DNA of 64,000 nt. Source: Escherichia coli (GTDB lineage Bacteria > Pseudomonadota > Gammaproteobacteria > Enterobacterales > Enterobacteriaceae). The position numbers and the translations under genes are program-made. The notes below the pieces were generated by a model that searched no databases, had not been told where the DNA came from, and saw only the letters and a program-made list of their open reading frames with translations. Shown here piece after piece: positions 62,392 to 63,535 of the stretch (the stretch's first letter is position 1; every line of letters begins with the position of its first letter). The stretch lies in the NCBI RefSeq assembly GCF_024502345.1, contig NZ_JALDNN010000001.1; one strand, written 5' to 3'.

Positions 62392-62469
62392 ATGGAATTA
62401 GTTAATACATTATTTGCAAGCCTTGCCGGTACTGATCCCTTCACAGGCGTGGATATTACGATTGCCAAC
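62392..62469 (+). pseudogene. 5' fragment (26 codons) of a gene of unknown function interrupted by an IS903-type insertion
   Basis: ATG 16 bp after the upstream stop; MELVNTLFASLAGTDPFTGVDITIAN runs straight into the IS left end; same frame resumes after the element. Confidence 0.5.
62461..62469. repeat. Target-site duplication, left copy (ATTGCCAAC)
   Basis: Identical 9-mer flanks both IS ends. Confidence 0.85.
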
Positions 62470-63526
62470 GGCTTTGTTGAATAAATCAGATTTCGGGTAA
62501 GTCTCCCCCGTAGCGGGTTGTGTTTTCAGGCAATACGCACGCTTTCAGGCATACCTGCTTTCGTCATTTTGTTCAGCGCTCGTACCAGGGCCATAGCCTC
62601 TGCAACCTGACCATCGTAGTCACGCAGTGTCAGTGAACCCCCGAACAGCTGTTTTACCCGGTACATCGCCGTTTCCGCTATCGAGCGACGGTTGTAATCT
62701 GTTGTCCATTTCCACCGCGCATTACTCCCGGTCATTCGCTGATTAGCCACTGCACGGTTACGGTCTGCATATTCACCGGGCCAGTAACCCGCACCTTTTC
62801 GGGGAGGGATAAGCGCGCTGATTTTCTTACGCCGCAGTTCATCGTGACATAGCCGGGTATCGTAAGCGCCATCGGCGGCGGCTGACCTGATTTTCCGGTG
62901 GGTTTGCCGGATTAACCCGGGGAAGGCCTCTGAGTCCGTAACGTTGTTCAGCGACAGGTCAGCGCAGATGATTTCATGTGTTTTACTGTCAACGGCGAGA
63001 TGCAGCTTACGCCAGATACGGCGGCGTTCCTGGCCATGCTTTTTGACTTTCCACTCGCCTTCACCGAAGACCTTCAGCCCGGTGGAATCAATTACCAGGT
63101 GTGCGATTTCACCCCGGGTGGGCGTTTTGAAACTGACATTAACCGACTTTGCCCGCCTGCTGACACAGCTGTAATCCGGGCAGCGTAGCGGAACGTTCAT
63201 CAGAGAAAAAATGGAATCAATAAAGCCCTGCGCAGCGCGCAGGGTCAGCCTGAATACGCGTTTAATGACCAGCACAGTCGTGATGGCAAGGTCAGAATAG
63301 CGCTGAGGTCTGCCTCGTGAAGAAGGTGTTGCTGACTCATACCAGGCCTGAATAGCTTCATCATCCAGCCAGAAAGTTATGGAGCCACGGTTGATGAGGG
63401 CTTTATTGTAGGTGGGCCAGTTGGTGATTTTGAACTTTTGCTTTGCCACGGAACGGTCTGCGTTGTCGGGAAGATACGTGATCTGATCCTTCAACTCAGC
63501 AAAAGTTCGATTTATTCAACAAAGCC
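62470..63526 (-). mobile_element. IS903-type insertion sequence (IS5 family), 1057 bp, with perfect 18-bp terminal inverted repeats
   Basis: Left end GGCTTTGTTGAATAAATC (62470-62487) and right end GATTTATTCAACAAAGCC (63509-63526) are exact reverse complements; single transposase ORF; 9-bp direct repeats flank it. Confidence 0.9.
62526..63449 (-). CDS. IS903-type DDE transposase
   Basis: Track ORF 62526..63494 (322 aa); probable true start is the GTG at 63449 giving 307 aa (VAKQKFKITNWPTYNKALINRGS...); fills the element. Confidence 0.8.
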   Translation of the reverse strand: MAKQKFKITNWPTYNKALINRGSITFWLDDEAIQAWYESATPSSRGRPQRYSDLAITTVLVIKRVFRLTLRAAQGFIDSIFSLMNVPLRCPDYSCVSRRAKSVNVSFKTPTRGEIAHLVIDSTGLKVFGEGEWKVKKHGQERRRIWRKLHLAVDSKTHEIICADLSLNNVTDSEAFPGLIRQTHRKIRSAAADGAYDTRLCHDELRRKKISALIPPRKGAGYWPGEYADRNRAVANQRMTGSNARWKWTTDYNRRSIAETAMYRVKQLFGGSLTLRDYDGQVAEAMALVRALNKMTKAGMPESVRIA

Positions 63527-63535
63527 ATTGCCAAC
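63527..63535. repeat. Target-site duplication, right copy (ATTGCCAAC)
   Basis: Identical 9-mer flanks both IS ends. Confidence 0.85.

Follow-up and report, generated by a model that had tools for sequence, protein, structure and literature searches.

Introduction

A DDE transposase binds the ends of its element and joins them to staggered target strands, and repair of the resulting gaps duplicates the target. The flanking repeats of Tn903 are where IS903 was first described, and together with IS102 of pSC101 this element displays the architecture, the ends and the duplication length that are common to the IS903 group. The isoform IS903B is 1057 bp long and is a clinically relevant mutagen: an element identical to it was reported moving into mgrB within a patient, and inactivation of mgrB by IS903B leads to colistin resistance (PMC10513040). 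The preferred target of IS903 is given in Table 1 of PMC2577343 (citing Hu & Derbyshire 1998; Hu et al. 2001) as the palindromic sequence WTTYA-N9-TRAAW, and H-NS is mentioned in PMC9860058 as influencing IS903 targeting, on the authority of Swingle et al. 2004.

Here we analyse an insertion of this kind in a 64-kb stretch of Escherichia coli DNA, which we refer to as a whole as the window. The element is an already-known insertion sequence in an ordinary simple insertion; what the locus adds is evidence for the independent origin of identical IS903-group junctions.

Results

The element occupies positions 62470–63526 and, read from its transposase gene, lies on the minus strand. It is a complete copy of 1057 bp, bounded by the terminal inverted repeat GGCTTTGTTGAATAAATC at the IRR end (62470–62487) and by the IRL-end repeat at the high-coordinate end, upstream of the transposase gene (63509–63526). 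The repeats match at 18 of 18 positions and are exactly 18 bp long, as pairing ceases from base 19. With up to three mismatches tolerated, GGCTTTGTTGAATAAATC is found at just these two places in the 64-kb window (0.02 expected), and the same scan reveals no second IS903B. Many copies annotated as IS903B are 100% identical to the element over its full 1057 bp, both on E. coli chromosomes and on many plasmids, including those of Klebsiella, Escherichia, Salmonella and Citrobacter. The initial annotation had described a 1057-bp, IS903-type element with perfect 18-bp inverted repeats; this description is right, and the complete nucleotide identity and the exact transposase match allow the exact name IS903B to be given. 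The name rests on copies named by RefSeq/PGAP and on the protein match, used as a proxy for the ISfinder isoform rule.

In silico, the window copy is assigned to IS903B by its length, perfect ends and 9-bp duplication, by the family and motif of its transposase and by its identity to named copies. It shares with IS903B the single 307-aa DDE transposase as well, and shows no detectable difference from it; the insertion site alone is particular to the lineage. By description, IS903 of Tn903 and IS102 of pSC101 have the same architecture, ends and duplication length, and they are isoforms a few percent diverged, whereas the window carries the exact IS903B isoform. The majority of plasmid matches to the window element fall in the 95–99% identity band, consistent with IS903/IS102 isoforms.

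The sole long open reading frame within the element runs on the minus strand from a GTG start to a TGA stop (62526–63449) and encodes 307 aa; an in-frame upstream TTG at 63494 gives a 322-aa form, which is the one annotated in some records. The 307-aa sequence is exactly that of the multispecies 'IS5-like element IS903B family transposase', present on at least 1000 contigs, and it matches the NCBIfam profile NF033579 (IS5 family transposase) over 289 of 289 profile positions, with 357.6 bits against a cut-off of 140. It keeps D121, D193 and E259 together with Y252, R255, E259 and K266, which we take to be the DDE residues and the Y-2-R-3-E-6-K signature. The transposase gene is therefore intact and antisense to the plus-strand gene that it interrupts, as previously noted. 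Given the perfect ends and the intact DDE and YREK residues, it is reasonable to infer that this copy is probably still mobile. A consensus scan for promoter-like sites reading outward from the element into the 3' gene fragment detected none.

On both sides the element is abutted by the same 9-mer, ATTGCCAAC, at 62461–62469, where it forms codons 24–26 of the interrupted gene, and at 63527–63535. The chance of two identical 9-mers abutting both ends is about 4^-9. At five empty-site loci (L001, L002, L005, L008 and L029) ATTGCCAAC is present as a single copy, and in BLAST comparisons with empty sites the overlap between the two segments is precisely these 9 bp. Together, these observations identify a true target-site duplication. 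They also bear out the perfect duplication of the initial annotation by the comparison that it had proposed, since in strains with the uninterrupted gene both flanks are contiguous and the 9-mer is single.

Both junctions are reproduced in independent read sets. A contig of SRR10682173 matches the window at 100% identity over 7 kb, a stretch that takes in the left junction and 1037 bp of the element, and a right-junction contig of SRR32878073 has 0 mismatches to the window and to the empty-site locus L005 over 1.9 kb. Two further right-junction contigs (L027, from SRR10682436, and L028, from ERR14375843) show no difference from the window until 1150 nt beyond the junction and lie 14–22 SNPs from the window's haplotype, W, further downstream, a pattern which suggests recombination mosaicism towards glpD.

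The host DNA is E. coli chromosome. Over its first 50 kb the window follows the gene order of an ordinary E. coli chromosome, namely yhiI, nik, zntA, ftsYEX, rpoH, liv, ugp, ggt, gnt, asd, and in annotated relatives the insertion site lies in a four-gene accessory island between glgP and glpD. When the element and one repeat are removed, the healed sequence is contiguous in E. coli chromosomes at 99.7% identity. At least 80% of the healed region is present in 1,763 of 5,426 complete E. coli genomes, always on the chromosome; any match to the region is seen in 3,921, of which these 1,763 retain at least 80%. K-12 is missing 3.4 kb that begin within the PstS-family gene, include the interrupted gene and extend to glpD, and its yzgL is what remains of the 5' part of the PstS-family gene (L004, MG1655 3563519–3564133, compared with L001:5590–9032). 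Local GC at the site is 42–45%, against 52% window-wide. No Rfam family was found within 60000–64000, and the 64-kb window contains no tRNA, so the island is not tRNA-linked. Elsewhere in the window, two inverted repeats of 109 bp, which are about 87% identical (27149–27257 and 32993–33101), bracket the panM-livKHMGF region, and the livJ/livK paralogues are 77% identical (26018–26917 versus about 28125–29024).

The first island gene (60859–62376, plus strand) is intact and encodes a membrane-anchored PstS-family/PBP_like_2 protein of 501–505 aa, depending on the start; an exact-protein look-up matched the 501-aa form and returned no record of the 505-aa form. By eye, about 230 N-terminal residues of this protein are hydrophobic and are fused to a PstS-like periplasmic binding domain, which TIGR02136 matches below its cut-off at residues 283–497. 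It leads an operon-like arrangement in which three orphan genes follow; the first of these, 16 bp downstream, is the interrupted gene. Island genes 3 and 4, spaced by intergenic gaps of 2 bp, code for a 255-aa and a 201-aa hypothetical protein and lie outside the window. From the operon-like spacing, we would expect the insertion to lower expression of these two genes by polarity.

The interrupted gene, the second of the island, has 236 codons and is named either 'YbbD family protein' or 'hypothetical'. It starts with an ATG at 62392 on the plus strand and is split after codon 26, in agreement with the initial annotation. Its 5' fragment (62392–62484) consists of codons 1–26 followed by inverted-repeat sequence, giving a 30-aa frame that ends ...IAN|GFVE*; its 3' part resumes at 63536 and, in the healed translation, runs through codons 27–181 to the end of the window at 64000. 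Over these 181 aa the healed product differs by 1 aa from the 236-aa 'YbbD family protein' WP_000424543.1. Relatives are found in Escherichia and Shigella only (25 clusters). The YbbD family name given by PGAP is not upheld, as NF007301 (PRK09781) reaches 22.6 bits against a cut-off of 373 and matches residues 7–49 only. Pfam yields no domain and only a non-significant match to DUF4286, PADLOC assigns neither gene nor island to a defence system, a PHROGs search of both gives nothing meaningful and a PDB sequence search finds no solved relative; a defence or toxin role is thus not supported by any of these searches.

In an AlphaFold model of the 236-aa protein (me6405424027d; mean pLDDT 58) residues 1–100 alone are confident, and they form a beta-hairpin/long-helix/beta domain. 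Foldseek found no match to this model in the PDB below E = 0.1; the top fold matches, APOBEC-type cytidine deaminases, are non-significant (E 0.16–1, TM about 0.2) and were dismissed as evidence. The C-terminal region contains a Cys-rich stretch, CAEESCRDCNSC.

In other strains the same gene carries an A6 frameshift, internal deletions, fusions or an IS1-like end. These many routes of inactivation and the absence of the gene from K-12 show that it is dispensable and often decaying. The A6 run lies at 63878–63883, and a -1 frameshift there is common to the homologue clusters P0043, P0045, P0048, P0049 and P0051 (...KRPLKNVTPGLRM...); the cluster P0040, with 307 member sequences, ends in ...QVMTPTY*, which resembles an IS1 terminal repeat.

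To date the insertion we used draft and Logan assemblies, reached by exact-protein look-ups. Among 5,426 complete E. coli genomes none has an IS at this site, and the closest of them is only 99.7% identical over 25 kb. L005 (GCA_050022275.1) has the same flank haplotype with an empty site and 1 mismatch in 6.07 kb, and L008 has the intact 236-aa gene, 2 mismatches and the window's allele of the upstream protein. This allele is found on contigs with the intact gene and also on the IS-bearing SRR10682173. A twin with an empty site at about 1 SNP in 6 kb indicates that the insertion is young relative to that lineage. The element itself is without divergence from circulating IS903B copies, and with the L005 twin and the lack of the insertion in complete genomes this substantiates the earlier description of the event as recent.

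We then asked where else the site is occupied. Sixteen contigs from other assemblies encode the 30-aa truncated product, and because both ends of the element read GFVE-stop this product is independent of orientation. All 16 contigs show the junction ...ATTGCCAAC|GGCTTTGTTGAATAAAT, while flank haplotype, orientation and element vary. Occupied sites equivalent to 62461–62469 are seen in other E. coli lineages (L016–L024 and L030–L033).

With SNPs counted against the window's flank, the element read from the IS end at the left junction and orientation given relative to the window, these insertions can be told apart. Haplotype W comprises the window and SRR10682173 (0 SNPs per 3 kb), with IS903B in the same orientation. 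An IS903B-like end, also in the same orientation, is found on haplotype Z (L019, 90 SNPs per 3 kb). A further element, variant D, with an inverted repeat matching at 17 of 18 positions, is inserted in the same orientation on haplotype Y (L017, L021 and L022, 90 SNPs per 3 kb) and on haplotype X (L020 and L024, 104 SNPs per 3 kb). Haplotype X is additionally occupied, in inverted orientation, by an IS903 variant that is identical to IS903B at 120 of 127 positions (L016 and L018, 103 SNPs per 3 kb), and haplotype Y' carries an inverted element that is IS903B-like over 28 nt (L023, 92 SNPs per 3 kb).

Variant D is common on Klebsiella plasmids, among them virulence plasmids (e.g. the 80956–82011 region of pLVPK, NC_005249.1). 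It has a 9-bp duplication like the window element, and its ends are the same bar one base (17/18 at one end), but at 1056 bp and only 87.2% identity to IS903B it is a separate member of the IS903 group. Both of its junctions, with the ATTGCCAAC duplication, are present within the same samples in SRR13871249 and SRR10692679. For the inverted orientation, the right-junction contigs of ERR4229347 and SRR23593197 have the IRR end adjoining ATTGCCAAC; right junctions were recovered by look-up of the predicted contig-edge products. Complete genomes with identical X flanks have an empty site. None of the three junction types is present in complete genomes, the other events being documented from contig ends.

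Recombination between insertion sequences is unable to change the end that abuts the flank. Thus, element and orientation distinguish at least three independent insertions at the same nucleotide, and the number is probably five or six. Given several independent insertions at this site, finding the same junction in another strain is not evidence of common descent.

We compared the site with the target preference of IS903. It matches WTTYA-N9-TRAAW at 6–7 of 10 positions, and the 7 of 10 reached in the printed register place it within the top 2.3% of window positions; like the target printed in Table 1 of PMC2577343 it is palindromic about the duplication and has A13 and A14 on both sides, and it differs from it in lacking the T on both sides. 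In the published target as in the natural hits at this site, insertion takes place in both orientations. A target profile was built from 86 natural IS903B IRR-end junctions from other genomes. The profile recovers T11-R12-A13-A14-W15 outward from the IS end, in agreement with the published half-site. In these natural junctions T-R-A-A-W stands at positions 11–15, one base outside the duplication, whereas that table prints N9 between the half-sites; a half-site one base outside is consistent with a 21-bp target. A weak preference for G1/C2 and avoidance of A at position 9 are also seen among the 86 junctions.

Junctions matching the IS903B IRR end exactly were encountered in unexpected records as well. 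The draft of Shimwellia pseudoproteus DSM 3038 (L042–L092) has about 60 of them at contig ends, an apparent large IS903B expansion fragmenting the assembly. Exact IS903B ends also occur in MAG contigs (L039, L093–L096, L101 and L112) labelled Sutterella, Segatella copri, Clostridia, Erysipelotrichia, Nanosynbacter, Ruminococcaceae and Rhodanobacter, which are most likely mis-binned enterobacterial or plasmid contigs.

Scored with the profile, the window site reaches 4.05 bits, where the window as a whole averages -4.1 (sd 3.65); this places the site in the top 1.2%, and each half scores like a typical natural junction. Eleven positions in the 711-nt gene score equal or better, so that by motif score the site is good, not exceptional. 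As a control we looked up the predicted truncated products at other high-scoring positions, which have the same selective context and were subject to the same detection method. No insertion is recorded at nt 97, the highest-scoring short-product control (6.07 bits). The position nt 283 in its X allele (5.16 bits) is occupied in four contigs by two different IS903-group variants, with no insertion on record for the W allele; this position (L116:784 and L117:784, equivalent to about 63732–63740) was seen in SRR25293809 and SRR16499320.

An empty nt 97 and eleven equal or better positions indicate that the motif alone does not fully predict which good sites receive insertions, and the use of nt 283 by two variants indicates that recurrence is not peculiar to the window's site. 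The 3–6 hits at one nucleotide are a raw count, and recurrence of this order fits a fairly sequence-selective transposase, dispensable DNA and the sampling of hundreds of thousands of assemblies.

Discussion

Taken together, we are highly confident that a single complete IS903B transposed recently into a dispensable 236-codon orphan gene of the glgP-glpD island, at a site that fits its target preference. In the mechanism that we propose, the transposase would bind the two identical 18-bp ends and join them to target strands staggered by 9 bp, and gap repair would then create the ATTGCCAAC duplication. The site would be chosen for its fit to the IS903 preference, in which 21 bp form a palindrome and N-T-R-A-A-W lies to either side of the 9-bp duplication. 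The insertion cuts the gene down to a 30-aa peptide and, by polarity, probably lowers the expression of the two genes that are tightly coupled to it downstream. It may persist because the gene is dispensable, and the element, recent in its lineage, appears to have all that is needed to move again. Site fit and dispensability together would explain how related elements came to insert, each on its own, at this very nucleotide in other E. coli lineages.

Two alternatives question whether a lone element was inserted here at all. Many E. coli genomes and plasmids carry several copies of IS903B, and misjoins commonly arise at repeats, so that an assembler could have misplaced a repeat copy at 62470–63526. 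A misjoin, however, would not yield an exact 9-bp duplication of host DNA, which is the IS903-specific length, between flanks that are adjacent in the empty site, and the left junction of SRR10682173 and the right junction of SRR32878073 match the window in independent read sets. The exact duplication and the recovery of both junctions in independent data therefore make an artefact, the refutation foreseen in the initial annotation, very unlikely, with a probability that we regard as close to nil. We consider it just as implausible that the element is one end of a composite transposon resembling Tn903. The history of IS903 as flanking repeats would suggest such an arrangement, and only 465 bp of the window lie to the right of the element. 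In Tn903, though, two IS903 copies enclose a passenger and the duplication stands at their outer ends, whereas here a lone copy is directly bordered by both copies of the duplication; the flanks are contiguous host DNA in empty sites, 64 kb contain no second inverted-repeat copy, and right-junction contigs run on into the normal downstream genes.

The other alternatives accept the insertion and concern its recurrence. One ancient event, ancestral to all carriers and thus neither recent nor recurrent, would account for finding one and the same junction, ...ATTGCCAAC|GGCTTTG..., in 16 contigs that come from several studies. Against this stand three elements (IS903B, variant D at 87% and the variant differing at 7 of 127 positions) in both orientations, which recombination between insertion sequences could not produce at the flank-abutting end; flanks that are 90–104 SNPs per 3 kb apart, with SNPs as close as 194 bp to the junction; and empty sites whose flanks match the W and X haplotypes nearly or completely. 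We therefore judge an old inherited insertion to be very improbable. Somewhat less remote, and still unlikely, is that the hits reflect a selected knock-out or a special hot spot beyond the known motif, for example through H-NS-bound AT-rich foreign DNA or local DNA structure. At least three and possibly six independent hits fall on one nucleotide whose motif score is good rather than exceptional (top 1.2%), local GC drops to 42–45% against 52%, an influence of H-NS on IS903 targeting is mentioned in PMC9860058, and the gene is inactivated by many other routes. Selection for loss, however, would scatter insertions over the gene rather than concentrate them on one nucleotide, and carriers are rare, at 0 of 5,426 complete genomes. 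As to a hot spot, nt 283, another motif-favoured position, was likewise hit by two variants, so that recurrence looks general, and the sampling is enormous, the look-up collection comprising 153 billion gene positions. A recent IS903B insertion at a motif-favoured site in dispensable DNA remains our preferred explanation.

In annotating this strain, one should record IS903B as disrupting the gene and treat the copy as probably active; it sits in a dispensable orphan gene without known phenotype. It is a doubtful proposition that the ATTGCCAAC site, or the glgP-glpD island, is a natural 'trap' attracting IS903-group elements above what the 21-bp motif predicts; if true, the site would offer a chromosomal model for how nucleoid proteins steer IS903 targeting. 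More generally, IS903-group junctions used as typing or phylogenetic markers could mislead, as identical junctions do not imply shared ancestry.
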